From Candidatus Bathyarchaeota archaeon (GTDB taxonomy: Archaea > Thermoproteota > Bathyarchaeia > Bathyarchaeales > Bathycorpusculaceae), in assembly GCA_963702095.1 (NCBI GenBank), contig OY969706.1, positions 1,024,001-1,088,000 of the forward strand: a DNA stretch of 64,000 bases. The letters are read 5' to 3'. Shown here piece by piece: positions 33,707 to 64,000 of this stretch. Every line of letters starts with the position of its first letter. Positions within the stretch are counted from its first letter, which is position 1. The notes below the pieces were generated by a model, which saw only the letters and a list, made by a program, of their open reading frames with translations, made no database searches and was not told the origin of the DNA. Both the position numbers and the translations under genes were made by a program.

Positions 33707-36700
33707 ATGATGGCAAAGATAGACAAAAAAATTGGTATAATTGGAATTGGGGCTGTAGGTACTCCGCTAAAAGCAACCTGTGAAGTATATTTCAAAGAAG
33801 TAAAAGAATATGATAAGAAAGGCAACTATGACTGGCAACCAATACTTGGTTGTAACATAGTCTTTATCTGTGTTCCGACCCCTGAAGGTGCTGCCGAAAG
33901 GTTAGATTGCAGTTGCATCGAAGAAGTTCTAACGCGACTTGACAATGACCGCTTCCTTGGAATAGTAGCAATAAAAAGCACCCTCGCTGTTGGCTTTATG
34001 GATAAAGCGTGCGATTTTCATCCTAATTTGCGTTTGGTCTACAATCCAGAATTTTTAAGAGAAAAAAGCGCTTTTCAATGGACAGTCAATCCTGATAGAA
34101 TTGTAGTATCGGGTGATCTAAGCGACGCCAAAGAAGTCTTGTCAGTTTTTGTCTGGGCTGAACATGCGAAGACGATAATAACGGATCATCGGTCTGCTGA
34201 AATTGGGAAGCTCGCTCATAATGCGTTCATTGCAACAAAAGTAGCCTTTACGAACGAAATGGAGCGAATATGTCAGAAACTTGAAGCAAATGTCGAAGAC
34301 GTTATGGATGTAGTGACGTCGGATCGCCGGGTAATATCAAAAGAACATCTACAACCATACTTAGGTCCGTATGGGGGGAAGTGTGTTCCTAAAGACATTA
34401 AAGAGCTTAAGAATGCCTCAAAATCTAATTTCTTGCAAGCAGTTGAAGATGTCAATGAAGAAACCAAGAGAAGATACGGCGCTAATGAAAACAAAGTAGG
34501 ATGTAACCTAACCCCCAAGTCAGAGATTAGAATTGTAACAATAATTCCAACGCGGTCTAGGTTGACCCAATTAGAAAAAGCACTCACAAACGTAGCAAAG
34601 CAAACTCGACCACCGGATGAATTAATTGTAGTCGGAGATGAAAAGACCGATTTACCAACTGACAGAAAAGCTATGGAAAGCAAATTCATCAAAACAAAGG
34701 TATCTTGGCTTTTTAACGCAAGAACCAAAAACCTTTCGGGCGCCATAAACACAGCAACTCAATTCCTCATAAAGACGGAGATTGATCCAGAAAGAACCTA
34801 CCTTGCCCTCTTGGACGACGATGACAGATGGGCACCTGACTACCTGCAAACACTTGTTGATCGAGCGACTTCTGCACTACAAGACCTTGTTATTTCTGGG
34901 CTAATCCGCCATGAGACTGAAGGGGATGCAGGGACTAAGCAAACCATCCCCCAAGCCATCAACCAAAATATGTTCTTGGTTGGAAATCCGCACATACAAG
35001 GGTCAAACCTATTTGTGAAAATGAGCACTTTTCTGCGAGCAGGAGGGTTTGATGAAAACCTTCCAAGTTGCACTGACAGAGATTTTATGATAAGATTACT
35101 GGATCTTGGGAATATCCAATACTCTTGCATACAGAGACACCTTGTTCACCATTATGCTAGCTCAGCAAGTCGCCTTTCAAAATATGGATCCGCGAGCAAA
35201 ATCGGCGGTCTGACGAGATTTTTGCGAAAATATCAAGACCGGATGACCGCCCAAGAAAGTCTTCAATTTAAAAAAAGGGCCAAAACTCTTTTCGGATGGA
35301 CAGAAAGCATAGTGCAACAAAGTGCTGAAATATCAAGCCTTCCACCCCCTCCTAAGTCAACAAACAAACATGCCTTTCATCTGGTCGTAGGATTTACTGC
35401 TTCGCATCTATCATGCGCAGGCAAACTCTTACGCGATCTGAGTGTATTTCAGAAACGCTTTCCTCAACCGATCTCTCTTGTAATTTTAGACAATACAGAG
35501 AATAGGAAGCAGCTTGAGCAATTGGTTGCAGAAAACAAAACAGGCCTATTCAGTTCAAGATTGATCTCTGAAAGCGAGGTATACCAAGACGCTGACGCAG
35601 GCAAACTAGGGACGTTCTACGTAAACAGAGAACGAAGAAAAGGACCAAGTTATGGAAGAACGGCGCTTCATCGATTCTTGTATTTGACAGGGGTTGAGTT
35701 AGAGAATCCTGTTTTTTGGATACTTGACGACGATGTTAGATTAGACAAAATAGTATATGCCTCTAATAATCAAGTAATAATACCTGAGCAATTTCAAGAG
35801 ATTGTAGATTACCTGCTCGAACAGAAAGTCGCTATCTGCGTCGCTGGGATCATGGGCGACCCCCCACTGCCGATTGAAAGCAGCATCCGCGGCCAACTAT
35901 TGGAGCTAAGCCATTATCTGAGAAAACAAACCGGCAACGCTCACAGTGAAAAAAAGCTTGATGCTGATGCGGTTGCAGAACGCTTCCCTGACCAATACTA
36001 CGATCTGTCAACAAGCCGATATGACCATTTAGAAACCCCAATCAAAGTATCGTTAAACATAGATGGGCTGGCTTTTGCTCAATGCATAGACTCTTTGTTT
36101 GAGGGAAGAAACCAACTTAGACCTGCTCTGCCAACAAACGCATCTATCATAATGCGAGGCGGTAACACTATCGTCACTGACATAGAATGCCTTCGAACAC
36201 ACATTAACAGTTCTCCAAGGATTAACGGGGTAGAACTCCGGAGGGGTGATACAAGCTGGGTAGAGCTGAACCGATATGTTGGCGGGGAACTGGTGGGTTA
36301 TGAAAACAAACAGGTCATCAGCCTTCCTCTATTCCTCAGGCAAGAGCGAGCGCCAACATTCAAGGCGAAATTGCTGGGTGAGACGCTAGCAGCCGACCTT
36401 TTGGGAGGAGCATTCGTCAGGGCGTTTACCCACCTATTCCAAAAGAGAAGCGAGAACAGCAAAGAAATGGTGGATATCGGTAGCACCCTTGCCTTCTCAG
36501 AGGAAGATTGCCATACAGTAATAGCAGAAACAATGCGTAATCTTGAACAACGCTTAACCATTTTGCATATGAGTGCATGGCGAATAAACGGTCTCATTTC
36601 ATCGATTAGATACCAAATTGCCAATGGTAGTGGGACTACCGCAAATATGCTAAACCAGGAAGAAACCACAAGACTTTATGCGGTTTTAAAATGGATCGAC

Positions 36701-39637
36701 GAAGATCTGTCGATTCAAAGAATAAATGAATTCTCCCAAAATCTCAAGTTAGGTGTAGCTGAAGGCATTACTGACTATTTACTTACGTTCGAAAAATCTA
36801 GGCTGCAATTTGCAACTAACCTTGGTTTGAAGGCGACTGGTAAGCAAAAAAGAAAGGCTCAAGAACTTATCCAAAAGCATTTTGGGGCTGTTACTCTCGG
36901 GTTAATAGGTCAGGGTCAAGAAGGCCTTGTGTTCAGTGACGGAACTAATGCATACAAATACTTCATCAAGAATGGTATCCAAAAGAAGAGTGGGCTGCTT
37001 GACCTTATCCGGGATAAGCTTAATTCGTCAGCAGAGCTCAAGCGAATTGTTGCAGTTGAGAATCTCATTGTTGAAGATAACCAAGTTTTGTTAAGCATGC
37101 CATTGATAGAAGGAAGCCACTATAATGGCGGCAGGATAACAGAATTCCTCGAACTCTTAAGAGAATGCAAGAGGGCAGGCATAGTCACAACAAACCTTTG
37201 GCCAAAAAACCTCATCGTTGGCAAGAATGGTCTGGTTTATGTTGACATTGGAAGGAGTTTAGCGCCTTTCCGAGAAGACCTCTTCAATGAAATGTGCAAG
37301 AGAGCATACCTAACCTATAGGTGGCACTTCAGGTCCGACCTCAAAGAACTGCTTACAAAAAGCCTACAGAACCCTAATCTACCAGAACTATTCGGGTTTG
37401 AAGAATTCAAGAAATCAATCGAAAAAGTAGATGTTCATACACAAATGGATAACTACCTAATCCACGAATGTCTCAAATCAAATCCTCGGACTGTGCTAGA
37501 TTTTGGTTGTGGCACAGGCACTATAGCTGACCAACTTGCCCATTATGGCTGTAAGGTAGATTGCTATGACCCTAACCCTGATAGATTCAATAGTCGACCA
37601 CACAGAGAGAATGTAACTTTACTGCAGCTAAACGACGTGGATAAGTCGGTTAAAGATGGACAAGGCTACGACTTAGTTTTGTGTAATCTAGTGCTATGTT
37701 CAATAGAATCTGACATTGAGGTCGAAGCGATAATGCAGCGACTTAGAAGCTTGACATCGCAGAATGGGCGGGCTATTATAGGATTGTGCAATCCCCTCTC
37801 GGATGAGGTTAAAACAAGCCCAAGCCAAACAAGAAACGTTACACACAACCAGTACCACGATCAATATGCCATTACAGAAACTACGCCCAAAGGTAATCAA
37901 AGGACAGATTGGCATCGACCCATCAGTTGGTATGAACACATGGCCCACCAAGCAGGTCTTGAAATAGAAAAAACGGTCGAAGTTCCAGGCGTAGACACCG
38001 AACGACTATCCCCCAGCAGCGACCAAATTTTGTTAGTACTACGTCCGTTGATCCAACCAAAACAAATCAAAACAGTCTCTTTAATGATAAAAGCCAGTGC
38101 TATGGAATGGCAAACTATTGAAAAACAGGTTAGGCACATTGTTTCGCAACTGGAAGGACCACAGAAATTCATCGAAAAAATAGTCGTCACTGACACAGCA
38201 ACAGAAGGCTTCGCAAGACAATACGCCAAACCAAACCTGGAGAAATTCCAGCAAGCCCTCCAAAAACTCACAGAGGACCATGTCATTGATCGAATAATTT
38301 CAGCCCCAGATAATTCAGAGCAAATCAAGGAAGTTTACCAAAAATGGTTTGGTATCGAATGCTCAAAACCACGCGTTATAACCAACGGGCAACCGGCTTT
38401 TATGACACTTTATGGATTCGACCAGTGCAAAAGCAACTACATACTGCAGATGGATTGTGACTGCATATTCTTTAGACGCTCACGCTCACACGACTATCTT
38501 GGAGAAATGATTAGTCTTCTTGAAAGCGACCACACAGCAGTAACAGTTGCTTTGCCAATTCCATATGGTGAACCACAACCCTTCAAAAAAGAAAATGAAA
38601 ACACACCATTCAGGGTCGAAGTAAGGTGCTGTCTGCTAAACTTGTCAAAACTTAAATCCATGCTACCACTAGAAAACAAATTGAAAGATGGCCAGTTAAG
38701 CTTGCCCTGGCACCGCAGCTTGGATTTAGCGATATCAAAGGGAAAAGCAACTTCTTATCGAGGCGGCAATCCCCAGACATGCTTTGTGCATGTACCGAAC
38801 TTTAGGAAAATTGACGTAAACGACTGGATGAGTATACTAGATGCAGCAGAAAACGGCAGAATGATTCCAGAGCAACTAAACAAAATACAGCTAGCTGGCG
38901 AAGCGGCAGACTGGCTAGGAAAACGAAACGAAGAAATGGTTATTCTAATGCGAGGACGCAATGTCCCTCTCTCAAAAGTCCGCCGCTGTGTGGCTTCTTT
39001 GCAGGCTCAATCTTTCAAAAACTGGTCAGCAATAATAATTGACGCTAATTCGTCTAATGGACTTGAGGAATTGTACGAGTTTTCATTAAGGAAATCCATT
39101 GGACACAAAGCCACTTATGTTCGCAACCATGTTTTAATGTCTCCGATGGAAAACATCGAATACGCAACCAGTAGCATATGCATGAACCCCCAATCAATCA
39201 TACTGCACCTAGACTTAGACGATGCACTCATAGGAACAGACGCTTTAAGAAAGGTCAAAGATGCCTACGACAAAGGAGCAGACGTAACAGTAGGGTCAAT
39301 GCTTAGGACCGACAAACAAGCGGAATATCAAGTGACCTTAAAGAATCCCCGTTCTAATCGGGGCGGAAACGTTTGGCAACACCTTCGAACCTACCGAAAA
39401 TACATCTACGACACAGTGCCCAAGGAGTACTTCAAAGTTGACGGAGAATGGGTTACTCATAGCGAGGACTGGGCTTTCATGATCCCCATGGTAGAACTCT
39501 CAAAGAATCCGGTTCATATCAAAGATAAGATATACTTCTACGAGCCGTCAGAGGATAAGCCAAACAGGGATATCCAAGAAAGGGAAACCCTTATCGCTAA
39601 AATCATAGCTAAGCCATCCCTGGGGGGTAAGAATTGA
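33707..39637 (+). CDS. 1976-aa fusion: NDP-sugar dehydrogenase, several GT-A/GT2 glycosyltransferase domains, kinase-like domain, SAM methyltransferase
   Basis: GIGAVG, IKST, NPEFLRE, GPYGGKCVPKD; IIPT..LLDDDD..GGFDE..TDRD; ILDDD; GQGQEG..PKNLIV..VDIG; LDFGCGTG; QMDCD; IIDANS..HLDLDD..SEDW. Confidence 0.85.
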   Translation: MMAKIDKKIGIIGIGAVGTPLKATCEVYFKEVKEYDKKGNYDWQPILGCNIVFICVPTPEGAAERLDCSCIEEVLTRLDNDRFLGIVAIKSTLAVGFMDKACDFHPNLRLVYNPEFLREKSAFQWTVNPDRIVVSGDLSDAKEVLSVFVWAEHAKTIITDHRSAEIGKLAHNAFIATKVAFTNEMERICQKLEANVEDVMDVVTSDRRVISKEHLQPYLGPYGGKCVPKDIKELKNASKSNFLQAVEDVNEETKRRYGANENKVGCNLTPKSEIRIVTIIPTRSRLTQLEKALTNVAKQTRPPDELIVVGDEKTDLPTDRKAMESKFIKTKVSWLFNARTKNLSGAINTATQFLIKTEIDPERTYLALLDDDDRWAPDYLQTLVDRATSALQDLVISGLIRHETEGDAGTKQTIPQAINQNMFLVGNPHIQGSNLFVKMSTFLRAGGFDENLPSCTDRDFMIRLLDLGNIQYSCIQRHLVHHYASSASRLSKYGSASKIGGLTRFLRKYQDRMTAQESLQFKKRAKTLFGWTESIVQQSAEISSLPPPPKSTNKHAFHLVVGFTASHLSCAGKLLRDLSVFQKRFPQPISLVILDNTENRKQLEQLVAENKTGLFSSRLISESEVYQDADAGKLGTFYVNRERRKGPSYGRTALHRFLYLTGVELENPVFWILDDDVRLDKIVYASNNQVIIPEQFQEIVDYLLEQKVAICVAGIMGDPPLPIESSIRGQLLELSHYLRKQTGNAHSEKKLDADAVAERFPDQYYDLSTSRYDHLETPIKVSLNIDGLAFAQCIDSLFEGRNQLRPALPTNASIIMRGGNTIVTDIECLRTHINSSPRINGVELRRGDTSWVELNRYVGGELVGYENKQVISLPLFLRQERAPTFKAKLLGETLAADLLGGAFVRAFTHLFQKRSENSKEMVDIGSTLAFSEEDCHTVIAETMRNLEQRLTILHMSAWRINGLISSIRYQIANGSGTTANMLNQEETTRLYAVLKWIDEDLSIQRINEFSQNLKLGVAEGITDYLLTFEKSRLQFATNLGLKATGKQKRKAQELIQKHFGAVTLGLIGQGQEGLVFSDGTNAYKYFIKNGIQKKSGLLDLIRDKLNSSAELKRIVAVENLIVEDNQVLLSMPLIEGSHYNGGRITEFLELLRECKRAGIVTTNLWPKNLIVGKNGLVYVDIGRSLAPFREDLFNEMCKRAYLTYRWHFRSDLKELLTKSLQNPNLPELFGFEEFKKSIEKVDVHTQMDNYLIHECLKSNPRTVLDFGCGTGTIADQLAHYGCKVDCYDPNPDRFNSRPHRENVTLLQLNDVDKSVKDGQGYDLVLCNLVLCSIESDIEVEAIMQRLRSLTSQNGRAIIGLCNPLSDEVKTSPSQTRNVTHNQYHDQYAITETTPKGNQRTDWHRPISWYEHMAHQAGLEIEKTVEVPGVDTERLSPSSDQILLVLRPLIQPKQIKTVSLMIKASAMEWQTIEKQVRHIVSQLEGPQKFIEKIVVTDTATEGFARQYAKPNLEKFQQALQKLTEDHVIDRIISAPDNSEQIKEVYQKWFGIECSKPRVITNGQPAFMTLYGFDQCKSNYILQMDCDCIFFRRSRSHDYLGEMISLLESDHTAVTVALPIPYGEPQPFKKENENTPFRVEVRCCLLNLSKLKSMLPLENKLKDGQLSLPWHRSLDLAISKGKATSYRGGNPQTCFVHVPNFRKIDVNDWMSILDAAENGRMIPEQLNKIQLAGEAADWLGKRNEEMVILMRGRNVPLSKVRRCVASLQAQSFKNWSAIIIDANSSNGLEELYEFSLRKSIGHKATYVRNHVLMSPMENIEYATSSICMNPQSIILHLDLDDALIGTDALRKVKDAYDKGADVTVGSMLRTDKQAEYQVTLKNPRSNRGGNVWQHLRTYRKYIYDTVPKEYFKVDGEWVTHSEDWAFMIPMVELSKNPVHIKDKIYFYEPSEDKPNRDIQERETLIAKIIAKPSLGGKN

Positions 39638-42600: not shown

Positions 42601-44094
42601 TTAGGTAGCCTCCTTACGGATAATCTGCTTAAGATTCTCTGCAAGAATCGATAGCTGATGATTCTGCGTCTGGTCCTGTGTTTCTGTGTGGTTGCCTCGG
42701 ATTAATGCATCTTTGGATAGGATTTCTTCTGGGTTTCCGCCCCATGCGCGTATGATCTCTTTGAGCTGGTCAATTCTGTTAGCTTGGGTCTTAGGTCTAA
42801 TCGCTAAGCCGGCTGTCTGGTAGAGGTTTCTTAGGGTTTCTATGCCTAAGCTCTGGACGTCTTCGTAAGTGTTGATTGTGTGTCCCATCATGTACTCGAT
42901 GATTTCGGTGTCGATTTTTGCTGTGCTGAGTTGGCTTCGGAAGAATTTTCTCAAGCTGTGAGTTCTAACGGTGTACATCCAACTGTTGGGTAGTTTTTTA
43001 GAGACGTTAGTGCTGACTGCTAAAGTATGTACGATGTGTCTGATGGCTTTCTCGCTGACGCCTAACACTCGGTTTGTGACTTGTTGGTTTCGGATGAGTG
43101 GGGCATCGTCTGTTAGGGTTTCTGGTGGCATTGATCTGCCGCCTCTTTGTCGGTCTTGAAGGTACAGTTTTAGCAGTTGGCATGCTTCTGCGTTTATGAA
43201 GGTGTCGTAGTCGTGGTATTTTCCTTTGGTTATGGCGGCTTCAACGTGGATGTGGATGGGTACGCGGCCTGCTTCATAGTCTTCTTTTATGTGTCGGTAT
43301 TTGAGTTTGGCAAAGGTTCCTTCACGGAATGCGCCTGAGGTTATAGCTGCGATGATGAATGCTTCTCGTACTGCGGCTTTGTCTAGCATCAATGCGATTT
43401 CTTCTGGTTTTGGCGCTCGGTCTTTGTATGTTACTTTGCGGCTTAGCGGTTCGTCGAGTTCAACTTTTTTTACTCCGTTAACTCGGTAGAAAGTTTTTAT
43501 GGATTTTATGTGGTTGCTGACTGCGCCTGAGCTGAGGTCTTGGTCTTGGAGGTGGGCTAAGTAGTCGCTTAAGAATTCGCAGTGGCTTTGCACTTTTATT
43601 GGGTCTGGGATTGCGCCGACGGGTTTGACGTCTTGGATGATTATATCGGGGTTATGGCCTAACCATTCTGCGTATTTCTTGGTTTTAGTCGTGTAAATAA
43701 TGCAGCTGGAGTGCGAGGCTGAGCAGTGTCTTAAGAAGTGTCGTGCGATTTTTAGCATGCTCTGGTACTCAAAGATGTATGGAATTATGCTTGACTGGTT
43801 TCTTAGGCATGAGCGTATGATGTAGTCTACGAGTCCTTTTTCTTGGGCAGCTAAGATTTTGCTGAGTTGGATGGTTATAGGCTGTCGGAGTTTCCAGCCG
43901 TCTATGCTTCGCTCGATGGTGACGGTGTCGCCTTGGATTATCAGCGGTAGGTTGAGGCTTTTTAGTTCTTCAACGGAGAGGTTGCGGTTGCGGGTTATAG
44001 CGGAGGCTAAAGATGCTGTGCGTTGTAGCAATCTAGTTTTCTCCTTTGGAGCTTTTTGCTCTTCGAGTTTTTCGCTCCGATGGTCGGAACGCAT
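42601..44094 (-). CDS. Tyrosine recombinase / integrase (element 2)
   Basis: GAFRE, ITKGK, HSLRK, MMGH, TYED; shares e.g. ITKGKYHDYDTF and VTYKDRAPKPEE with integrase 1. Confidence 0.92.
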   Translation of the reverse strand: MRSDHRSEKLEEQKAPKEKTRLLQRTASLASAITRNRNLSVEELKSLNLPLIIQGDTVTIERSIDGWKLRQPITIQLSKILAAQEKGLVDYIIRSCLRNQSSIIPYIFEYQSMLKIARHFLRHCSASHSSCIIYTTKTKKYAEWLGHNPDIIIQDVKPVGAIPDPIKVQSHCEFLSDYLAHLQDQDLSSGAVSNHIKSIKTFYRVNGVKKVELDEPLSRKVTYKDRAPKPEEIALMLDKAAVREAFIIAAITSGAFREGTFAKLKYRHIKEDYEAGRVPIHIHVEAAITKGKYHDYDTFINAEACQLLKLYLQDRQRGGRSMPPETLTDDAPLIRNQQVTNRVLGVSEKAIRHIVHTLAVSTNVSKKLPNSWMYTVRTHSLRKFFRSQLSTAKIDTEIIEYMMGHTINTYEDVQSLGIETLRNLYQTAGLAIRPKTQANRIDQLKEIIRAWGGNPEEILSKDALIRGNHTETQDQTQNHQLSILAENLKQIIRKEAT

Positions 44095-52947: not shown

Positions 52948-55662
52948 CTAAAGGTCATCAGGGTCTATGCCGTGCAAAGTTTTGTTGGATTTAAACAACT
53001 CAATTATTCTTTCAGCTGTAAGTTTACCCTGCCAAAATTGAACAATCATGTCACCGATAATAGGCGCTGAAATCAGGGTCACCTTGGAACTAATTGCATT
53101 ATCCTTTGCAACATCAGCAAAATCTGGATAACCCAAAGTCATGTTCACTACAGGTTTGTATTTAGCCCCTTTACCAAGAACTTCCTCCGCTTCAATAGCC
53201 GAGACCCGCCCAATTTCTTTTCGTTTTACTTCAATTGCAATTAAGCCTTCTGGAATAGTAATCAAAATGTCTGGACTGTGCTGGTCTTTATCCCCCACAA
53301 ATTCAGACTTGATACCAAACTCAGCAGTAAACACCTGTGCCAAGTGCCTTGCTAAGTCGTCGCCGTGAGTTTCATAAAGCCCATCGATTGCACCCGTTTC
53401 TTTTCCCATCTTCTTTGCTAGCCTAATTTGACTGGACCTCTTTCTTTGGGCTTCGTTTTTGATATACGCTTCAACTGACTCTTTTATTCGCAATGCCAGA
53501 GAGTCTCCGATATCAGAAACTTTTGCCAACTCGTCAATGCTGGCTTTAAGAATATTATCGATGTCAACGAATCCTGCTTTTACCAGATTCATTGCCCGCC
53601 TTCTATGTATGCCTTGAATTCTTAACCTAATTATCGGAAGTGCTTCTTTGGGTACACCAAAATAAATGCGCTCTGACAAGTCGTATAGGAATTTGACGAA
53701 ATCATCGTCAAAATTGAAAAGAGGTTTCTCTGCTAAGCGCGCAAGACCATGAAGTATCCATTGGATATTGTCAGCCACCCTGTGAATTACACCTGGCGGT
53801 GCATATTGGCTTAATTCAATGTATTGTGCTCCCTCTGTCCATCTTAAAAGCATTCGAGTTGTCCTTAGACTTGCTAAGAAGATGTCAGGGGAGGGTTTGT
53901 ATATGAAAGCATCTTTATGCATAAACCAAATTGCTTGTAATTCTTGTGTTTCCGCTTGGCTTTTGGGGGGATAAACCCTTTCAGCGCCATTGGTGCAACA
54001 ACAGAGATGAATAATTCCCTCAGTGATTAATTCGTAGTTACCCTTGGAAAATTTAGCTTCATTGGCTTGAAGTACGGTTTTAAGAAGGATTATTGCTTTT
54101 GGGGTAAGTAGCTCTTCTGCACATCGTAAGCCTAGTTCAGTTGCCTCTAACTTTCCATTTTCTTTTACTAAGCCACCATTTTTGAGTACGCCTATTTCTT
54201 TTTCTATCATTTCTACGATTTCTTTTTTGTAAGTCTCTGGCTTATCGATAGAATATTGAAAACCGAAAAGTGTGTTTTGGAGACAGAAACTTAATTCGTC
54301 TGTGTTAGAGCAAGTTTTAGAGCTTATTAGTTGTAATAACGAGCAGTCTAAGCCTTCACATTTCGAAATTTGAGAGGTAATCCTTTCAGGTTTCGTATTT
54401 ACGTAGTTATCCCAAAAGTATTCTAAAGTTCTCTCATCAGACGCCAACAAAATTGATCTGCCAAACTGGTCGGGTCCCCTTAATCGTCCAGCTCTTCCTG
54501 AAATATTTTTGTAACTTGACACTGAGAGTGGTTGACCATCATAATATCGGGTGAAAAGAATGACAGCATTTTTTGCTGGTGTATTGACTCCAGCAGAAAG
54601 TGTTGGTGTGGTGCAAATTATTCGGATATTTCCATTCTTAAATTCTTTCTCGACGAACCTACGTTCATCAGCTAGCAAACCTGAATGATGGAAAGATACG
54701 CCATGTGGAACAGACTTTTTGAGTTTGGCAGTGGTAGGTGTTGCCTCTAACAGCTCATCGAGTTTCTCCAATTCACGCTCAAGTTGAGGAAGTATCGGCA
54801 TCTCTTTTGCCAAACCTTCAGCAAGTTCCTCTGCCTTAAGTTGTGTGTTAACAAAAACTAAGCATTGTTCTGTTTTGCTTGTTTGGACTATTTCCCCGTA
54901 TGTCTGTATCATTAAACCTTTTTCAATTCCGACATTCCCAGAATTGAATTCTCTATATAGGAAATCTCTATTATTGAGGGCTTGCCCATGAAACTTAATA
55001 GGAGCTGTTCCTGAGTAGAAAATGCCTTCTCTAAGTTCAACATCCCTCTCTTGAATGTTTATAAGACCACAGCTGAGCCATTTTGCAAGAATATCAGCAT
55101 TTGTGATAGTAGCGGAAAGTCCAATAATTTGAATATCTTTGGTAAAGAAGATTAACCGTGTAAGTAACATTTCAAGGGAAATCCCACGAGTATTATCGCC
55201 TATATGCTGTATTTCGTCGATTACAACTAAGCCTATATTGTCCAGAATCTTGGGTCTTTTTACTATTAATGAGTTAAGCTTTTCATATGTTGCAATTATT
55301 ACGTCAAAGGATAGCAACTCATTATCAAATTCATAATGATCAGATGTGGAAATAGCGGTTTTTAGTCCCCAGGTGCCGTATTTTTCTTCAAAGTCTTTGT
55401 ACATTTGTTCGGCTAACGCTCGTAGAGGAACTAAAAAGAAGCTTTTTTTATCTTGTTTTTTTGAAGCGTTTAGAGCTGCAAGTTCGCCTATGAAGGTCTT
55501 ACCAGTATTTGTTGGAGCACTTACAAGAAGGTTCTTGCCTTCAAAAAGACCTGATTGAACTGCCGCTTCTTGTGCTTTTGTAAGACTTTCAAAGCATAGT
55601 TCTTTAAGCCGGTCAATGATCGTCTGACTTAGGCCAAACCCTGCGAGCTCATCAATACGCAT
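52948..55662 (-). CDS. Ski2/Hel308-like helicase with HhH and C-terminal PD-(D/E)xK nuclease-like domain
   Basis: APTNTGKT, DEIQ, LSAT, FHHSGL, TPTLSAGVNTP, GRAGR, ATELG, GIHRRRA; tail SPDIL...IEVKRK. Confidence 0.85.
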   Translation of the reverse strand: MRIDELAGFGLSQTIIDRLKELCFESLTKAQEAAVQSGLFEGKNLLVSAPTNTGKTFIGELAALNASKKQDKKSFFLVPLRALAEQMYKDFEEKYGTWGLKTAISTSDHYEFDNELLSFDVIIATYEKLNSLIVKRPKILDNIGLVVIDEIQHIGDNTRGISLEMLLTRLIFFTKDIQIIGLSATITNADILAKWLSCGLINIQERDVELREGIFYSGTAPIKFHGQALNNRDFLYREFNSGNVGIEKGLMIQTYGEIVQTSKTEQCLVFVNTQLKAEELAEGLAKEMPILPQLERELEKLDELLEATPTTAKLKKSVPHGVSFHHSGLLADERRFVEKEFKNGNIRIICTTPTLSAGVNTPAKNAVILFTRYYDGQPLSVSSYKNISGRAGRLRGPDQFGRSILLASDERTLEYFWDNYVNTKPERITSQISKCEGLDCSLLQLISSKTCSNTDELSFCLQNTLFGFQYSIDKPETYKKEIVEMIEKEIGVLKNGGLVKENGKLEATELGLRCAEELLTPKAIILLKTVLQANEAKFSKGNYELITEGIIHLCCCTNGAERVYPPKSQAETQELQAIWFMHKDAFIYKPSPDIFLASLRTTRMLLRWTEGAQYIELSQYAPPGVIHRVADNIQWILHGLARLAEKPLFNFDDDFVKFLYDLSERIYFGVPKEALPIIRLRIQGIHRRRAMNLVKAGFVDIDNILKASIDELAKVSDIGDSLALRIKESVEAYIKNEAQRKRSSQIRLAKKMGKETGAIDGLYETHGDDLARHLAQVFTAEFGIKSEFVGDKDQHSPDILITIPEGLIAIEVKRKEIGRVSAIEAEEVLGKGAKYKPVVNMTLGYPDFADVAKDNAISSKVTLISAPIIGDMIVQFWQGKLTAERIIELFKSNKTLHGIDPDDL

Positions 55663-56572: not shown

Positions 56573-58162
56573 ATGCTTGGAAAGGAAAATGAAATGCAGG
56601 ATAAATGTGAAAAAGAGGTTGACGACGCCTCATACGTAGTAGCGCTCGGATATTCTAACGTACCTCAAATTGTTAAAGAGAACCCTGTTATTGTAGTTGG
56701 AATATTAACAACAAAAAATTTAATGGATCAGTTAGAAAATGTGGAGTTCGATAAAAAAGAGAATGTAATTCATAGAAAAAATAGTCTTCTTGAACTCGAA
56801 GAAATAGCCGAAGATCTCTCAGAATACGTTCTTGAGTTTAGGGTTAAAATAATTGAGTCTATGACTCACCCCATTAGTGAGATAAAAGAAGTATATACTT
56901 CGATAATAAAAGACCTCATGGAAGGAACACTTTACCAATTCCAAAAAAGCATAGTTTACACTCGAAAGGTACTAGATTATGGCTTTGAGGAAAAGGAAAT
57001 TGCACCCGACCTTCCAAGTAATTCAAAAGTAATATATTGCCCGAAAAAGGATCCTAATAAATTCATAAGATTGGCAAGACTTCTTGCAAGACTTCACTAT
57101 GAAAGAGAAAAAACCATTACGTTATCAAGCGCTTTGGACCGAGTAAAAAGAAGTTACCCCAATAATTTCCAAATTGTTCGTATACGTTGGAATAGCCCGT
57201 CAATTGATGATTACAATGATCTTAACGTTGGCCCACCTTTTATGGTTATGAAGAAACCATTTGCAGCGCATTATGAAACTCAGTCCATTATGGTTGGTAA
57301 ACGGCTTAATATTTCACCTATCGCCCGTTTTTGCAGCGGGCAAGATAATGATGGCGAGATATCAAGATGTATACACAGTAATGGAAGCGAGAATCCATAC
57401 GGAGCTCTTGCAATTGACTCCTCTGGTGAGACGTGTGAAGATTGTTCCGCCCAGACGCGTTATCTAAAATGTGCGTACCAGAGACCTGCGTGCGATGGCA
57501 AGACCGTAGCCTGCAAAAATTATGCTTTTGCAGGAATTTTTTGTTTGGGTGCACACGCATTATATGTAACGCATTTTGGAAACACATTGAAAGTGGGAAC
57601 TGCTTTTGGAAGTAATGTAATCGGAAGATTACTAGAACAAGGTGCTGCTAGTGCTCTCGTAATATACCCAATTAATGGGGTAAAAATAGCAAGTGATCTT
57701 GAGCTAGCGATTACACGTTGCCTCAAAGAGAGGTTTATCCAAGGAACTGAACAATTGTGTGGTGGTGAGATTTCAAAGGTCGTATTTAAGGGACCGTCTA
57801 ATGAATACAGATTAAGTACTTTTCTACAAACATGGCATAATACTCGAGTTGAGATGTTGGAGGATATCCGTCGATACCTTTTCTCGGCAACTTTAAAGCT
57901 AGAGCAAGGTAACATCCATTTGAATAAAGCAAGCGTTGATTCCTCAATTGTTTCTTTAACTGATTGTTATGAGAATCCTGGTAACTCGTTTGAATTTGAA
58001 AAGAACTTAAAAGTAGTCAGAAAACGGTTCCAACAGTGTCAATCATCATTCACAGGCAAAGTTGTTGGATATAGAGGACCGTTTGTTTTTCTAGATTCAG
58101 GCAGTATATTAGATTTGAAAGCTATACAAGGCTTTGTGGTGGAGGGAAATTTAAGTGAGTGA
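56573..58162 (+). CDS. DUF2797-like Zn-binding protein with extra N-terminal domain
   Basis: RFCSG..C..CEDC, HALYV..LKVGT..RLLEQGA, GKVVGYRG..DLKAIQG; stop overlaps the pAgo start. Confidence 0.7.
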   Translation: MLGKENEMQDKCEKEVDDASYVVALGYSNVPQIVKENPVIVVGILTTKNLMDQLENVEFDKKENVIHRKNSLLELEEIAEDLSEYVLEFRVKIIESMTHPISEIKEVYTSIIKDLMEGTLYQFQKSIVYTRKVLDYGFEEKEIAPDLPSNSKVIYCPKKDPNKFIRLARLLARLHYEREKTITLSSALDRVKRSYPNNFQIVRIRWNSPSIDDYNDLNVGPPFMVMKKPFAAHYETQSIMVGKRLNISPIARFCSGQDNDGEISRCIHSNGSENPYGALAIDSSGETCEDCSAQTRYLKCAYQRPACDGKTVACKNYAFAGIFCLGAHALYVTHFGNTLKVGTAFGSNVIGRLLEQGAASALVIYPINGVKIASDLELAITRCLKERFIQGTEQLCGGEISKVVFKGPSNEYRLSTFLQTWHNTRVEMLEDIRRYLFSATLKLEQGNIHLNKASVDSSIVSLTDCYENPGNSFEFEKNLKVVRKRFQQCQSSFTGKVVGYRGPFVFLDSGSILDLKAIQGFVVEGNLSE

Positions 58163-60683
58163 TGACTATTCTTACGATTCGTACTTTTTAGAACTATTTG
58201 AGTTACAAACAGAGGAATTCTTGACCAGTTTTAGGGAATTACCCTTCTCACTATACCTTCCTCAACATTCAGAGAAAGTGCGCGCTCTATTTCCAAAAGA
58301 CTTCAAACGATTTGCATATTTTTCAGGGATGCTTGAATCGGGGGATTTTATTACCGCCTATATGGAGAAAAATCGTCAAGCATACCTTGTTTCTTCAAGT
58401 GATTTATCGACAAAACAATTTTTTGCGTTTGGAAGACAAGAATCCGATTATAAAGTTACCTTTAAAAAAATAGAAAACATTTCAGCTGCCGAGGTTTTGC
58501 AGCATGCTCCTTGGTTGATGGATCATTTTCTTTATTCATTCTTACGAAAGTCCATTCCTAATAACTTCAGATGCGAGGGTTCAGTGGCTTACGACATTAG
58601 TGCTGATTTACTTACTGGGAAAGAGGTCAAATCAACCAACGCACTTCTATCTAATTTGGCAGTATACCCCGCAGTAACCTTTTCAATTAACCACTATGGC
58701 GAAAAAATATATATTCATCTATCTCCGACCACCAGAATTTTGTCCAAAGCATCGATTCACAGGATTCAGCAGAATGCTGACTTCTCAAAAGACATAGTAA
58801 AGTATGTACGTTTAGATCTTGGCAAAATCAGCAGGTTTGCCGAAATTAAGGAAATCACCGAATTGCATAGTGATGTAAAAATTAATTCTGAAGCTTTTGG
58901 AAATAGAAATTTTCTTGAATTCGCTAGAGCCAATTACCCTGACATTCAACTGAACGATCCCAAAGCCAAATTGGCGATAGTTATTCCTTCGGGTTCTTCA
59001 AATTCATGGGTTTTCTCCTCAGAGGCCATGTATCCTTCATTCAATTTCCAAGCTATTGATGCTCTAGATCCCAAATTTTTTAAAAGCCTTCTTGGCATCA
59101 TAAAGGCTAGATCAGTAGCCAGATTGGAAAACGCAAGGCAGTTTGTTACAGCCATAAATCCGCTGAGTTCACCTTGCGGAGTAATTGAGATTAATGAAAC
59201 ACCTTTCACATCGAGAATATTGGTCAACGCTCCTTTCCTTCACAGCAATAAAATTGACGAAAGAAACCTCGAAAGACTCTCTGTGTCAGATGATGGCGCC
59301 GTTTTCGAGGCTCCATCAATTAGTTTAAGGGTTGCCGATAGCAAAGGTACATTCAGTGAAAAAACTATTTATCCGGGAATTGATCGTAAATTTGCTAATC
59401 TAAACGATTTGATGAAATGGCCAAATTTAGCACCTCTTGAGCCTATCCCCGAAATAAAAATTTGTTTGATAGTCGATAAAAAATTGGAAAATCAATGGAG
59501 CGCCGAGAAGGAAAACTTTAAACAAGCGTTGCTAAAAGGTGTGAATAATTACAAGTATTCATTTTCAGGGTTTGAGCAAACTTTTAAGTGCCCAATCGTG
59601 ATGTTGAATGAGTTTATAGTCGGCGACTTTTTTGGGGCTGAATTCGAAGAAGTTGTTAAGAAAATAAGTCCGGCTAACTTTGACTGCATTATTCTTATAA
59701 TTCCCCGATGGCTTGAATCAGCCCTTTCATCTAAGCAGATTTATTTGGTTCCAAAGGAAAAAATCATGCAAAAGGGCGTTCCAGTGCAGGTTATCGCAAA
59801 TGATCCAACTAGGGTAAAAGGAACGCTCAAGGATAAAGTTAGAGATCCATTTGTCATGTTTGGCTTGGCATTAAATATTGCTGCTAAACCTGGATATCGG
59901 CTTACTGCTTTCTCTAAAGAATTTGCTGACAAAATAATCGGAAACTCTGTAGTAATGGGCTATAACATAACGCGGATAACTCCTAAGTTGAGGAGTCTCG
60001 AACAAAACAGTACTTTAGAAGAGCGTATGGGTAAAACTATCCCTCTTGTAGCCCCACTCTTTATTATTGACAATAGAGGCTCTCGCATACTTCATTGGAA
60101 TTTTTATCAACCAACTTCCGAAGTAACGCTTTTTTCTGAGTTTGGTGATAAAATATTTAACAAAATTCCCAATGATGTTCAAAGGGTAATCATTCACAAA
60201 GACGGCCCCTTCAAGGATAATGAACTGAAGGTTCTTGAAAGTTTTAATACCGCCGACAGAAAAGTTATCCCCATCTCGATCACGCAATCAAATGCTTTGA
60301 GAATGCATAATGCATCGCATATAGGTGTAGGCAACGAGATTCAGCGTGGCGTCTTTCTAAAGTTGGATAACCGCAACTTCGAACTAGCAACAACGACTAT
60401 TCAAAGCTGGGACGCAACAAATTGGGGTTGGCCGCATCCTATTCACGTTCGAATACATGCAAATCAGGAATATGTTCAAAACCTGAAATTACTGTATCAT
60501 ATTTTCGCTCTTACTAAGATGCATTTTGGATCGCAACGTCCTACGCGGGCGCCAATTTCTATCCATTACGCAAATATGGTATCGACATTTCTACGTGCCC
60601 TTGGTGACGAAGCTCCTTCATTCCATCAAAGCTTCGAAAAAGTCTTTAATGAGAAGGGAAGAATGCCCTTATGGTTCCTTTAA
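58155..60683 (+). CDS. ago: Long prokaryotic Argonaute with degenerate catalytic tetrad
   Basis: MID pocket IYLVPK..GVPVQVI..NIAAKPG; PIWI VMGYNI, IIHKDG, GWPHPI, RAPISIHYAN; terminal PLWFL; L1/PAZ-like segments upstream; 842 aa. Confidence 0.85.
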   Translation: MSDDYSYDSYFLELFELQTEEFLTSFRELPFSLYLPQHSEKVRALFPKDFKRFAYFSGMLESGDFITAYMEKNRQAYLVSSSDLSTKQFFAFGRQESDYKVTFKKIENISAAEVLQHAPWLMDHFLYSFLRKSIPNNFRCEGSVAYDISADLLTGKEVKSTNALLSNLAVYPAVTFSINHYGEKIYIHLSPTTRILSKASIHRIQQNADFSKDIVKYVRLDLGKISRFAEIKEITELHSDVKINSEAFGNRNFLEFARANYPDIQLNDPKAKLAIVIPSGSSNSWVFSSEAMYPSFNFQAIDALDPKFFKSLLGIIKARSVARLENARQFVTAINPLSSPCGVIEINETPFTSRILVNAPFLHSNKIDERNLERLSVSDDGAVFEAPSISLRVADSKGTFSEKTIYPGIDRKFANLNDLMKWPNLAPLEPIPEIKICLIVDKKLENQWSAEKENFKQALLKGVNNYKYSFSGFEQTFKCPIVMLNEFIVGDFFGAEFEEVVKKISPANFDCIILIIPRWLESALSSKQIYLVPKEKIMQKGVPVQVIANDPTRVKGTLKDKVRDPFVMFGLALNIAAKPGYRLTAFSKEFADKIIGNSVVMGYNITRITPKLRSLEQNSTLEERMGKTIPLVAPLFIIDNRGSRILHWNFYQPTSEVTLFSEFGDKIFNKIPNDVQRVIIHKDGPFKDNELKVLESFNTADRKVIPISITQSNALRMHNASHIGVGNEIQRGVFLKLDNRNFELATTTIQSWDATNWGWPHPIHVRIHANQEYVQNLKLLYHIFALTKMHFGSQRPTRAPISIHYANMVSTFLRALGDEAPSFHQSFEKVFNEKGRMPLWFL

Positions 60684-60694
60684 GGTGAATAGAT

Positions 60695-61838
60695 ATGGTT
60701 GGTGGCGACACTGGAAAAGAAGGTATTGGTTATGAAGAATTGACTTTAGCGTTTCTCCTTTGTGGACCCTACGAAGTCGGCGCTTGTGAGTATGTTAACT
60801 TTGAAAGAGCAAGGGAATGGGAAATCAACCCTAAGCTTTTCAACTCAAAAATTCTCCAAATCCCATTTACAATTGATGTAGATTTTTTTATTAAAACGCC
60901 AGCTGTATACCATATTTTCTTCTGCAAAAGTTCAAGAAAGCTGGAAAAAAATAGCCCAAAAGAGTACTTTGAGAAAGCCCTCAGTACTTTTTGCGTTCTT
61001 GAAAGTCGTGGAAAAGAAAAATTTCAGGATAATTTTAAGTACTATTTCTTTTCCGACGCCATTCCTTGGCATTTAGTTAAGGATTTGCCAACTCGAGACA
61101 CTATCGAGCTCTCAGCAACGTTACTCAAATCAATGGGTTGTAAGAACACTGCAAAAAATAGGCAAATGTTTTCTCAACCGATTATAGCGGCAGTAAAACA
61201 AAAAACTAGATTTTGCCAGATTGACGAGGCGCTAATAAAAGAAAGAAAACCGCGTTTTCCTCAATTTGATGATATCGTCTCTCAGATTGCACAAGCTAAG
61301 CGTGAAGTTGAGCAAGCAATAAGTGCGCTTTTCCTCGGACTCTGTAGCTCAAGTATCTTTAGGTAAAGGTAGCAATCATTTAGGCAAACAATTCACTGTT
61401 GGAAAAACCACCTTCTCAATAGGAAATTATAAAAAAATACTTAGCGCTGCTAAATCATTTCAAAAGTCAAACAAAGAGCTAAAAATATTTGGTCACTTAA
61501 TTGATGAATTCAAGTTTTTAGGGAGTGACGAACCCGAAAGTATTGCAGGTATCTGTATTCTTTTTAATGACATTGTCTTCCCCCAAAATAATCTGGAAAT
61601 TTCGATGGCTATTACTCTAAATAATTACGATATTATTTTGTTCAAGCATAAGGAATTGTCAGACTTAATATGGGAAAAGTTGGATAGAAAACAAGGAAAA
61701 TACAACCTGTCTAATGTTAATGTACTTCGACAATTTGATGAAAAAACCGCTGTCGCTATTGCAATGCGAGCTTTTTCTAAAGGTCGATCAACCGATTTAA
61801 TGGAAAATAAATTCATTGTGCGAACCGACGAGATGTAG
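60695..61838 (+). CDS. PD-(D/E)xK-like protein downstream of pAgo (ORFs 60695-61366 and 61323-61838, probably one frameshifted gene)
   Basis: GIGYEE...IDVDFF...FFCKSS resembles a restriction-fold core; the two ORFs overlap by 44 bp across a T-run at ~61330. Confidence 0.5.
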
Positions 61839-61939
61839 TAGACGTGTATTTCTAATTCTAATCTAATTTATATACAAAATACTGACTACATTATACAAAT
61901 CTAACGATTTGCTAGAAAAACTATGGAAGTTCAAGAGCA

Positions 61940-64000
61940 ATGAGTTATTTTTGCAAAAACGTTGATAAGATTAAGCTGATGCAGAAAAGCGTTCCTACTG
62001 ACAAGGGTCTAAGAGAGTGCCAAATTGGTGCCTACTGGGCTGTTAATGCTCATTTTACATCTTCAGATGAACCTGCTCTTGTTGTAATGCCAACGGGTTC
62101 CGGAAAAACTGCATTAATAGAATTGTTGTCTTTTGGGTTAAAAGCAAAACGCGTACTTGTAATTACTCCGGGTGCTGTACTGCGTGATCAGTTAAAGGAT
62201 AACTTTCATGAGCTTACTGATTTAGTTGGACAAGGCATCCTTCCAGATGATATTGAGAAGCCAAAGGTTGACTGCCAAAATACTGTAATTACGTCAAAGG
62301 ATCAATGGGAACAACTCGAGAATTGTGATGTTATCGTATGCACACCGCATTCAATCAGCCCTAAGTATCATAAAGCAATTGCTCCTCCACCGGAAGGATT
62401 TTTCGATGTTGTCTTTTTCGACGAAGCACACCATATTAGGGCACCAAGCTGGGAAGAACTGCTTGGAATGTTTGGATCAAGCAAAAAAGTCCTCTTAACG
62501 GCCACTCCTTTCAGGCTTGACCAACTAAAAATGCTCGGTCGTATGATCTACAATTATCCGATTGAACGAGCAGTACAGAATAAAATTTACCAAAAAATAG
62601 AGTACCATAAAGTAGAAGTAGCAAATCCAGACGATCGGAATAGAGCCCTTTGCGATACAGTAAAAATAATTATGGGAGAAGAGAAAGAAAACGGTTTGAA
62701 ACCAAAAATTTTAGTACGAACCGATAAAGTGAAGAAATCAGATGCCCTAATTAAATTATACGCCGAAAATGGATTAAAAATCCGTAAAGTAGATTACACT
62801 CAAAATATGAATGCAAACAAAGCAGTTTTAACTAACCTTAAAGATGATAAAATAGATGGTATAGTTTGTGTGGGCATGCTTGGTGAGGGTATTGATATTC
62901 CTGCCCTCAAAATAGCAGTTTTACATGACCCCCCTAAATCCTTTCCACTCACCATTCAATTTATAGGCAGAATCTGTAGACCTAATGAAGCAAAAAAAGC
63001 ACATGTTGTTGCAGATCCTAAGCAAATAATTGAACGGGACACAAGTGATGAACTACGCCGCCTGTATGGATATGATAAAAAAGGTTGGCATGACCTCATT
63101 CCCGATATGGTTGACGAAGTGGTAGGTCGTGAGACAGAGATTCTTAGTTTGCCCTACCAAATCGGAAGTGGCCCATAAACGCCCAAGACATCAAACCATT
63201 TTACAGCGTTCAAATATATTCTTTGCAACCAGAGACCCTTAATTTAGATACTACCTGTAATTTTGCCGATGATGACATAGCAGTCTTCAAGCTACCGACA
63301 GCCAACGCCAATCTAAGAGTGTTTATCACTCAAAGAATAACTTCTCCTGCATGGGCTTCCAACTTAAGTAAAATCCGTGCTTTAACTTTTGATCTGCATT
63401 TATATTATTACCTGCCCGCAATAGGCTTTTTATTCGAATCAACAACTTTCAATCCTATCTCAGAAGAGATAAGGTATTCAATGACCAATGGACAGGAGCA
63501 AAAACTTCCTAGTGAGGAATTGGTTAAAGCCCTGAGATGTGCAGACCATTTAAACTTTAATATGTTAGGATTAGCGAGCGCTATTGGTTCTAGCCCGTCA
63601 ATTCCAAGTTATAAAACGTTAATGGGCAAGGAGGTCGAAGCTTCGATCGTTCCCACCGACTCACACATATTTATTCCAGGTCACGCTCTTGCAAGGAAAA
63701 AGACTGGCGAAACTATTGGCTTTTCATCATTTCAGGGGAAAATTTGGTCATTAAAGCGTGGAACAATCACACAATTCATTTCATGGTGCAATGAAGTTGC
63801 AGCTAACATTAATATGACTGCAGAAGTTTATTCGCTTCGCGATATTCCCTATCTGAATCCCATTAAAACGGCATGGAGCTTTTCAAGTAAGCCAATCGTA
63901 GTTACGGTGGACCCACATATTTCTGAGTATATAGCAACAATTATTCATCATGAGAGCGGGAAAGAAGACAACTCGATTATTTTTGGGGACCCAATTTTTG
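61940..64000 (+). CDS. SF2 (ResIII-like) helicase, frameshifted near 63170 and running off the window
   Basis: MPTGSGKT, DEAHH, TATPFR, EGIDIP, QFIGRICR in 61940-63178; another frame continues from ~63172 (PINAQDIKPFYSV...SYKTLMG...KIWS...FISWC) with no stop seen towards the window end. Confidence 0.8.

Follow-up and report, generated by a model that had tools for sequence, protein, structure and literature searches.

We describe here a three-gene Argonaute cassette from Candidatus Bathyarchaeota archaeon (assembly GCA_963702095.1), located in a stretch of 64,000 nucleotides (nt) of contig OY969706.1 (positions 1,024,001-1,088,000, forward strand), which is referred to as the window and whose numbering is used below. 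The cassette occupies positions 56573-61838, appears to be inherited as a unit and would most likely serve as a nucleic-acid-guided defence system, a reading in which we have moderate confidence. The defence role, as well as complex formation, the type of guide and the nuclease activities, we infer from the sequences and the predicted folds of the proteins. Gene 1 (56573-58162, + strand) encodes a protein of 529 amino acids (aa) in three parts, namely an RNase HII-like domain that is apparently dead, a module of eight Cys and a DUF2797 domain. Gene 2 (58155-60683, + strand) has a GTG start and encodes a divergent long prokaryotic Argonaute (pAgo) of 842 aa with the tetrad N604-E656-D683-N807. 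Gene 3 is present in two pieces: the first (60695-61366, + strand, 223 aa) carries a PD-(D/E)xK-fold domain of the Cap4/Avs/LmuA type, and the second (61323-61838, + strand, 171 aa), which lies in another frame and overlaps the first, carries the C-terminal domain.

A pAgo profile built from 12 family members was searched against 185,579 species genomes and against metagenomes. Two loci were recovered in the species genomes, one in a Bathyarchaeota metagenome-assembled genome (MAG) and one in a Sifarchaeum MAG, and 23 further loci came from the metagenomes. Together with the window, the 25 fetched loci give 24 distinct ones, as the near-duplicate pairs L007/L008 and L014/L015 were counted once each. 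The protein 1 family (~510 aa) is encoded directly upstream of the pAgo in 18/18 distinct loci with any upstream sequence, leaving out six contigs that start inside the pAgo gene. The protein 3 family (~390 aa) is encoded directly downstream in all 22 distinct loci with more than 213 nt of downstream sequence, leaving out two contigs that end 105 and 213 nt past the pAgo. Both partners are thus found in every locus with room for them, and a chance adjacency of the three genes is ruled out by these synteny counts. A sequence-only reading of this DNA had proposed a candidate Argonaute system here, and the surveyed loci agree with it: a pAgo lacking two tetrad residues in the window is partnered throughout with DUF2797 and restriction-fold proteins. 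That reading had named homologous pAgos lacking these neighbours as a ground for refutation, and the loci speak in its favour on this point. The pAgos of the related loci share 27-65% identity with the window pAgo. As the trio is kept while this identity drops to 27-32%, the link cannot be due to chance or to recent common descent alone.

The genes are also tightly coupled. Across the loci gene 1 mostly runs 1-8 nt into the pAgo gene, and gene 3 starts between -8 and +35 nt relative to the pAgo stop. In the window, gene 1 and the pAgo gene overlap by the 8 nt GTGAGTGA at 58155-58162, and the ATG of gene 3 (60695) follows the pAgo stop (60683) after 11 nt, both just as had been read from the sequence. 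The 842-aa version of the pAgo with its GTG start is backed by the residues E13 and F15, which are conserved at the N-terminus in the family alignment, and by the overlapping starts of the orthologues. A public protein collection lists the window pAgo with 784 aa from an internal Met start (region 58155-58331); from the sequence comparison we favour the 842-aa version.

The cassette is rare. The pAgo family was found in 0/400 other genomes of a sample of the phylum, 10 genomes of the same genus included, and a scan of 1.84 billion proteins gave 33 cluster representatives at E <= 1e-30. The clade is small and sharply separated, with 328 bits for the weakest full-length member versus 86 bits for the best full-length pAgo outside of it.

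Protein 2 is matched by the PADLOC pAgo model PDLC02436 (E 5.3e-38, residues 431-819). The Pfam Piwi model reaches the window pAgo with E 1.4e-4 and 21.7 bits, under its cut-off of 28.9, and matches 11/12 family members (best 1.8e-9); none of the pPIWI_RE models of Pfam matched any of the 12 members at E <= 1. When the family profile was compared with the PDB, the best structures were CtAgo (5e-11), CpAgo (1.2e-10), CbAgo (6e-9) and AaAgo (2.4e-8), all of the long-A type. Structures of short pAgos were matched more weakly, and no long-B or SiAgo chain was found at E <= 0.01; the profile lends no support to a long-B assignment. For the N-terminal half a weak colinear match was detected between positions 93-334 of the profile and residues 77-322 of CpAgo (9.8 bits). 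The look-alikes of residues 1-430 in the language-model-based Atlas include PAZ, ArgoL1 and ArgoN clusters at scores of 0.86-0.89, under the lead level of 0.9.

The MID domain of the pAgo carries Y530, K534, Q545 and K578 (59742-59888, + strand), which we take to be the pocket for the 5'-phosphate end of the guide, from the pAgo MID motif Y/H/R-K-Q-K. The four residues are invariant in the 12-member alignment, and among the 21 loci that cover this region 19 read Y-K-Q-K and two Y-E-Q-K. The pocket therefore looks intact, as had been read for the 842-aa protein. The reading of Asn at two of the catalytic residues is likewise correct (N604 and N807), with D683 still in place. With N604-E656-D683-N807 the DEDX tetrad (Asp, Glu, Asp, Asp/His) is not reached; here positions 3 and 4 were fixed by the alignment with CpAgo and position 1 by a GxDV-type motif, and the assignment of E656 is less sure. 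Across the loci position 1 is N in 17/23 and D in 6/23, position 3 is D in 23/24 and position 4 is N in 23/24. The window pAgo is thus probably cleavage-dead and would not cut by the usual two-metal route; members with D-E-D-N might still cleave.

Protein 1 was modelled with AlphaFold2 (AF2) from 16 orthologues (mean confidence, pLDDT, 79.7), and the model falls into three parts. The first, residues 20-186 (56630-57130, + strand), shows a type-2 RNase H (RNase HII/HIII) fold, and the model has 13 Foldseek matches at E <= 0.001, each of them to an RNase HII, H3 or H2. In line with this, hhalign aligned the N-terminal part with the RNase HII of related genomes over 172 columns (probability 67%, P 5e-5), versus P 0.76-0.81 in cross-controls. 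The Asp-Glu site of motif I is occupied by S28-N29 in 15/15 orthologues, in a register that we infer by extending the hhalign alignment by five residues without a gap. The GRG motif is gone, no conserved acid is present at motif II, and the motif III position is D/E in 11/16 orthologues and N in the window. The Pfam RNase_HII model gave no match in the protein 1 family at E <= 1. By its sequence this part derives from RNase HII and is no longer catalytic; the genome keeps a normal RNase HII of its own elsewhere.

The second part is the eight-Cys module, residues 254-324 (57332-57544, + strand), with Cys 254, 266, 288, 291, 300, 307, 314 and 324. These are invariant in 16/16 orthologues, the AF2 confidence being low in this region (pLDDT 51-65), and the module presumably binds Zn or an Fe-S cluster. 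The third part is the DUF2797 core, residues 327-390 (57551-57742, + strand), which lies inside the match to Pfam DUF2797 (PF10977; residues 287-387, E 1e-11, 45.6 bits versus a cut-off of 25). All 16 protein 1 orthologues match this family (best 2.9e-15), and the assignment of the first gene as DUF2797-like holds; the RNase HII-like domain in front of it had been missed. Residues 240-529 also reach a score of 0.93 in the Atlas, where all 30 matches are DUF2797 clusters. The AF2 model of the core reads strand-strand-helix-strand-helix, and Y331, G342, R352 and E377 are invariant in 16/16 orthologues. A GIY-YIG-like fold is reported for DUF2797 in the accessible part of a preprint (bioRxiv 10.64898/2026.10.10.758204), and both the topology and the four residues of the core agree with the GIY-YIG pattern. 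It is therefore a candidate for a GIY-YIG-like nuclease, which is likely but unproven. A PDB search with the protein 1 family profile gave rows at chance level only (FAS death domain, E 0.013), and a BFVD fold search with the model gave nothing at E <= 0.001. For the C-terminal half no fold was seen among the matches listed, all of which fell on one domain, and a new fold is not claimed.

An antisense ORF family (open reading frame, ORF) of 97-131 aa lies inside gene 1, in the window at 57520-57915 (- strand) and with counterparts in L001, L006, L009 and L011. Most likely it is not a gene and only shadows the coding sequence, which is conserved.

Neither piece of gene 3 in the window was matched by Pfam, NCBIfam or PADLOC. 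Beside the related pAgos the orthologues of this gene form a single ORF of 378-426 aa, and each piece of the window corresponds to one half of the L001 protein, with 64% (first) and 47% identity (second, residues 218-375). The third gene had originally been taken as one open frame. Here it consists of two ORFs in different frames, and this frameshift had been overlooked. Its assignment as PD-(D/E)xK-like stands, as the fold is backed by a search with an intact orthologue, in which Cap4, Avs and LmuA were the closest among the matches listed. D62 and K77 are kept in 21/21 loci. The Glu of the ExK motif is present in 13/21 and replaced by Ser in five and by Phe in three (the window, L001 and L003). 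The C-terminal domain is touched by one of the 50 fold matches listed, and we do not claim a new fold for it. In the middle of the protein most members outside the clade of the window show a Cys/His pattern (C, H, C, then CH), which is missing in the window, L001, L003, L002, L020 and L024 and is likely a metal site, judged from the sequence. In the near-duplicates L007 (8637-9173) and L008 (7387-7923) the ORF after the pAgo has only 178 aa and starts 35 nt past the stop, thus a shortened protein 3.

The frameshift leads to a first alternative, namely that the window copy is decaying or crippled by a real frameshift and a degenerate active site in gene 3, and does not work here even if the family works. 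We regard this as possible, though on the unlikely side. The one-base difference that splits gene 3 lies at 61326 (+ strand), in the linker between the two domains. Contigs from the public runs X2, X3 and X4, which come from two studies and represent relatives of ~90-97% identity, each lack one base at this position, whereupon the frames join; the window thus carries one extra base against the contigs of these three runs. An alignment of the window DNA to L001 has a 1-nt gap near 61326 as well. The replacement of the ExK Glu by Phe in the window, L001 and L003 and the truncated 178-aa gene 3 of L007/L008 point in the same direction. However, the break falls exactly into the sole disordered stretch of the predicted structure, linker residues 207-215 with a pLDDT below 50, both pieces are open and conserved, and genes 1 and 2 are intact. 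A working split gene or an assembly error is equally possible, and X1, the closest run, has no contig over 60814-61483, which leaves the site uncovered. The break could stem from an error in the assembly, from a mutation of recent date or from a split that is tolerated.

Downstream of the trio, co-oriented (+) ORFs continue to the end of the window, so that the run extends from 56573 to 64000. A spacer of 101 nt separates the end of gene 3 (61838) from the ATG (61940) of a superfamily 2 (SF2) helicase gene (61940-63178, + strand, 412 aa). After 44 nt an ORF follows whose 5' part lies in the window (63223-64000, + strand) and whose full length, taken from the genome, is 554 aa. The four co-oriented genes that had been described therefore hold for genes 1 and 2 and the helicase; the third is two overlapping ORFs, and a fifth co-oriented ORF starts at 63223. 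The helicase distance had been given correctly, and its SF2 identity agrees with the Pfam matches ResIII (1.2e-24), DEAD and Helicase_C. In PADLOC it matches PbeA (2.3e-19) and helicase parts of type IV restriction endonuclease (REase) systems. The 554-aa ORF belongs to no Pfam family, has a weak match to PADLOC PDC-S71 (1.7e-5 over 57 residues) and was not detected in the 400 other genomes of the phylum sample.

The helicase that recurs with the trio is of another kind. In nine distinct loci (L005-L009, L013-L017 and L023, near-duplicates merged) a DinG/XPD-like helicase of 855-896 aa with DEAD/ResIII and Helicase_C_2 lies 38-762 nt from the trio, on either side and on either strand. It matches the PADLOC candidate PDC-S28 (E 1.6e-287 for L014), and its link to the Argonaute cassette may explain this orphan single-gene candidate. 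The DinG-like helicase is lacking in the window, L001, L010 and L011, all of which cover 2.4 kb or more on either side of the trio; therefore the core is the trio. As a counterpart in the window we considered a gene at 52948-55662 (- strand), divergently upstream of the trio, and rejected it. It encodes a 904-aa helicase of the Hel308/Ski2 type (DEAD, Helicase_C, archaeal helicase domain 4, helix-hairpin-helix) and clusters with no ORF of the loci, and no hit in the window came up when the L005 helicase was used as a tblastn query. A paralogue of this Hel308-type protein, a 775-aa ORF with 31% identity, is located at G000:C1:10293-12488.

One could still regard the 412-aa helicase and the 554-aa ORF as the fourth and fifth parts of the system in this lineage, where they would replace the DinG-like helicase, which we consider improbable. 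Both are on the strand of the trio, at a distance of 101 nt, nine other loci have a helicase of a different family next to the trio, and the 412-aa protein matches the PADLOC defence helicase PbeA. Against this, BLASTP found neither it nor the following ORF in the 25 fetched loci, L001 as the nearest long one included. The 101-nt spacer is T-rich and holds a TATA-like TTTATATA motif (read by eye), which could be an archaeal promoter of the helicase's own, and defence islands are rich in helicases anyway. The helicase is thus not conserved with the trio and probably forms a separate unit with the 554-aa ORF, possibly a two-gene defence unit (61940-64000 in the window, 940-3887 in L027). That it may be independent had already been suspected from the sequence, where the DinG-like helicase of the other loci had escaped notice.

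For the trio as a guided defence system, the following mechanism would fit. The pAgo, which keeps the pocket for the guide 5'-end, would bind the complementary strand of an invader, probably without cutting it because of the Asn at tetrad positions 1 and 4. The cutting would be left to the two co-translated partners, proteins 1 and 3. It is plausible that the dead RNase HII-like module of protein 1 reads the duplex of guide and target, perhaps an RNA/DNA hybrid; that this domain binds such a hybrid is a guess. The DUF2797 core with its unvarying Tyr, Arg and Glu would be the candidate GIY-YIG-like endonuclease and protein 3 a Cap4-like PD-(D/E)xK partner, and the DinG-like helicase (PDC-S28) of many relatives may unwind the target or translocate on it. 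As protein 3 of the window has no ExK Glu and is split at the linker, protein 1 would be the likelier active effector in this genome.

Several observations speak against this model and have to be weighed. Six of the 23 pAgo members keep D-E-D-N, and the Asn at the fourth position is conserved and not drifting; cleavage by some members would change the model. For the hybrid-reading role of the RNase HII-like domain, all motif I residues and GRG are lost. The idea of a DUF2797 nuclease stands on the conserved residues and the accessible part of the preprint cited above (bioRxiv 10.64898/2026.10.10.758204), and neither Pfam nor Foldseek gave a GIY-YIG match to protein 1. A comparison by hhalign of its C-terminal half with seven small GIY-YIG proteins from genomes of this archaeon's class gave a probability of 0.1% (P 0.62). 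As a test this is weak, for the alignments were shallow and a single GIY-YIG subfamily was covered. Protein 3 of the window reads D62...F-C-K77, with the ExK Glu changed to Phe, and is frameshifted, so this copy may be impaired. Finally, the trio occurs without any helicase in L001, L010 and L011, and a helicase is thus not obligatory. A complex prediction of pAgo residues 431-842 (the MID-PIWI half) with protein 1, each with its own alignment, scored 0.06 versus a mark of 0.32 and was counted neither way.

A more far-reaching version of the model would be that two dead RNase H-fold modules, PIWI and the degenerate RNase HII, jointly read an RNA-DNA hybrid and license the DUF2797 GIY-YIG-like endonuclease, with the Cap4-like nuclease and interchangeable helicases as add-ons, and that this is a new class of archaeal Argonaute immunity. 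We put this forward as a speculation which will rather not hold in full.

The partners could instead make or process the guides; the pAgo would then work by itself, either through binding and blocking or, in the D-E-D-N members, through residual cleavage. Nuclease helpers of pAgos are known: the accessible text of two reports describes ACE1, a Cas4-family enzyme, which works with long-A pAgos (PMC12094033), and a co-encoded RNase that supplies guide RNAs to a pAgo (PMC11162769). The first tetrad Asp is moreover kept in 6/23 members. Yet 17 pAgos, that of the window included, carry Asn at tetrad position 1, so a separate executor would be needed for cutting, and the folds closest to protein 3 among the matches listed, Cap4, Avs and LmuA, are of the effector type. 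We therefore regard guide processing as the sole task of the partners as doubtful.

A role outside defence, for example in the handling of R-loops, of ribonucleotides or of intermediates of replication and recombination, which has been proposed for some pAgos, is very unlikely. In its favour, the RNase HII-derived domain and the DinG-like helicases point to RNA/DNA hybrids (for DinG and R-loops see the argument in the accessible part of PMC3702460), and in L001 and L011 the trio has housekeeping genes around it (GTP cyclohydrolase, CBS protein, methylmalonyl-CoA mutase). Against it, the family is rare and patchy (0/400 genomes of the phylum sample, 10 congeners included), five genomes of the genus show no DNA match to the window region, the trio is linked to a PADLOC defence candidate and to restriction-modification (RM) genes, and the RNase HII-like domain is dead while a normal RNase HII is present elsewhere in the genome.

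Seen as a guided defence system, the cassette can be compared with the known Argonaute systems. In the plasmid defence DdmDE of Vibrio cholerae the pAgo-like sensor does not cleave, and helicase and nuclease are combined in one protein. The cassette is like DdmDE, compared by description, in joining a non-cleaving pAgo-like sensor, a helicase and PD-(D/E)xK nuclease activity. It differs by the RNase H-like/DUF2797 partner, and helicase and nuclease are fused there. Sulfolobus islandicus has a short pAgo, SiAgo, with the membrane protein Aga2 as its effector. In the cassette the pAgo is long, both partners are soluble nuclease-fold proteins, and no SiAgo chain was matched at E <= 0.01; shared with the SiAgo-Aga1-Aga2 system, as far as the accessible part of its description goes, is an archaeal pAgo with two associated proteins (PMC11788926).

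The closest published logic is that of the pPIWI-RE triad, a bacterial system with the order REase-DinG-PIWI for which targeting of RNA/DNA hybrids was predicted (Burroughs, Iyer and Aravind, 2013, PMC3702460). As described in the accessible text of this paper, it likewise unites a PIWI protein, a restriction-fold protein with a Zn module and a DinG-family helicase, encoded by close or overlapping genes of patchy spread. In contrast, the cassette has a classical PIWI (Pfam Piwi in 11/12 members), the order protein 1-pAgo-REase, an optional helicase and the additional RNase HII-like/DUF2797 protein, and by PIWI type and gene order it does not belong to that family. Long-B systems with nuclease, SIR2 or membrane effectors (PMC10620215, accessible part) also tie a full-length, cleavage-impaired pAgo to a neighbouring effector. 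Here, however, two effectors of other families flank the pAgo, and the profile reaches long-A but no long-B structure at E <= 0.01. The long-A pAgos with ACE1 are co-encoded with a PD-(D/E)xK-superfamily protein as well; following the available text (PMC12094033), the pAgos there are active and ACE1 is Cas4-like, whereas the tetrad here is N-E-D-N and the partner resembles Cap4/Avs/LmuA. Stand-alone DUF2797 proteins (~270-310 aa, mostly bacterial) resemble residues 240-529 of protein 1, in which the domain, unlike there, shares a polypeptide with a dead RNase HII-like domain and is linked to a pAgo. The one context found for DUF2797 in the literature covered is an association with protease domains in generated sequences (PMC12804078).

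PADLOC-DB v2.0.0 (2023) holds no model for protein 1 or 3 (searched with the window pieces, L001 and L005), and the generic pAgo models and PDC-S28 are all that it contributes; the gene set is thus not already defined there, a point that the sequence-only reading had named as decisive. In the literature no description of this gene set was found; supplements such as the orthogroup tables of PMC6299218 lay outside the search and could hold these families. The cassette therefore looks like an undescribed Argonaute defence system, a variant of the pAgo-plus-effector systems. Few types of effectors are known for cleavage-dead long Argonautes, and the cassette would add a partner set that we did not find described. 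It brings in DUF2797, which is widespread in bacteria without an assigned function, and an RNase HII-derived domain without catalysis, and it links the PADLOC single-gene candidate PDC-S28 to Argonautes. The unit is compact, with three genes, and its known hosts, Bathyarchaeota and an Asgard MAG, belong to lineages that have been little studied. If the speculation on a hybrid-reading class were true, DUF2797 would receive its first function, PDC-S28 would be tied to Argonautes, and inactive Argonautes would have a third signalling route besides APAZ-fused effectors and helicase-nucleases. Should the DUF2797 protein be a target-licensed nuclease, it may be of interest as a tool.

As to the surroundings, the trio region has a G+C content of 37-40% versus 42-46% upstream, and for 52.8-64 kb of the window no DNA match was found in five genomes of the same genus, which share 67-87% DNA identity without synteny and are too diverged for mapping the ends of an island. 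A Phage_integrase-family ORF is located at 42601-44094 (- strand), ~12.5 kb upstream of the trio, and a terminase large-subunit gene follows beyond the end of the window, a few kb downstream of the trio. The island seems to border on a provirus or the remnant of one. Carriage on an integrative element, as had been supposed, is only hinted at. The integrase-family ORF, the terminase and the missing DNA match in five genomes point this way, while borders of an element were not found and no tRNA gene is present in the window. In other loci a type IIG RM enzyme (L014) and an Mrr-type nuclease (L011) neighbour the trio.

Two ORFs of the window match Phage_integrase over the cut-off, at ~2947-3468 (- strand, E 9e-8) and 42601-44094 (- strand, E 1.6e-7); the whole genome has seven such matches. 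Past the window end, L027 3946-7259 (G000:C1:1088946-1092259, minus strand) encodes an ABC/SMC-like ATPase (481-aa ORF) and the T4-type terminase large subunit (482-aa ORF), and beyond the terminase a 691-aa ORF shows YQBQ-like and InlB B-repeat matches. Further upstream in the window, a very long ORF of 1976 aa extends over 33707-39637 (+ strand).

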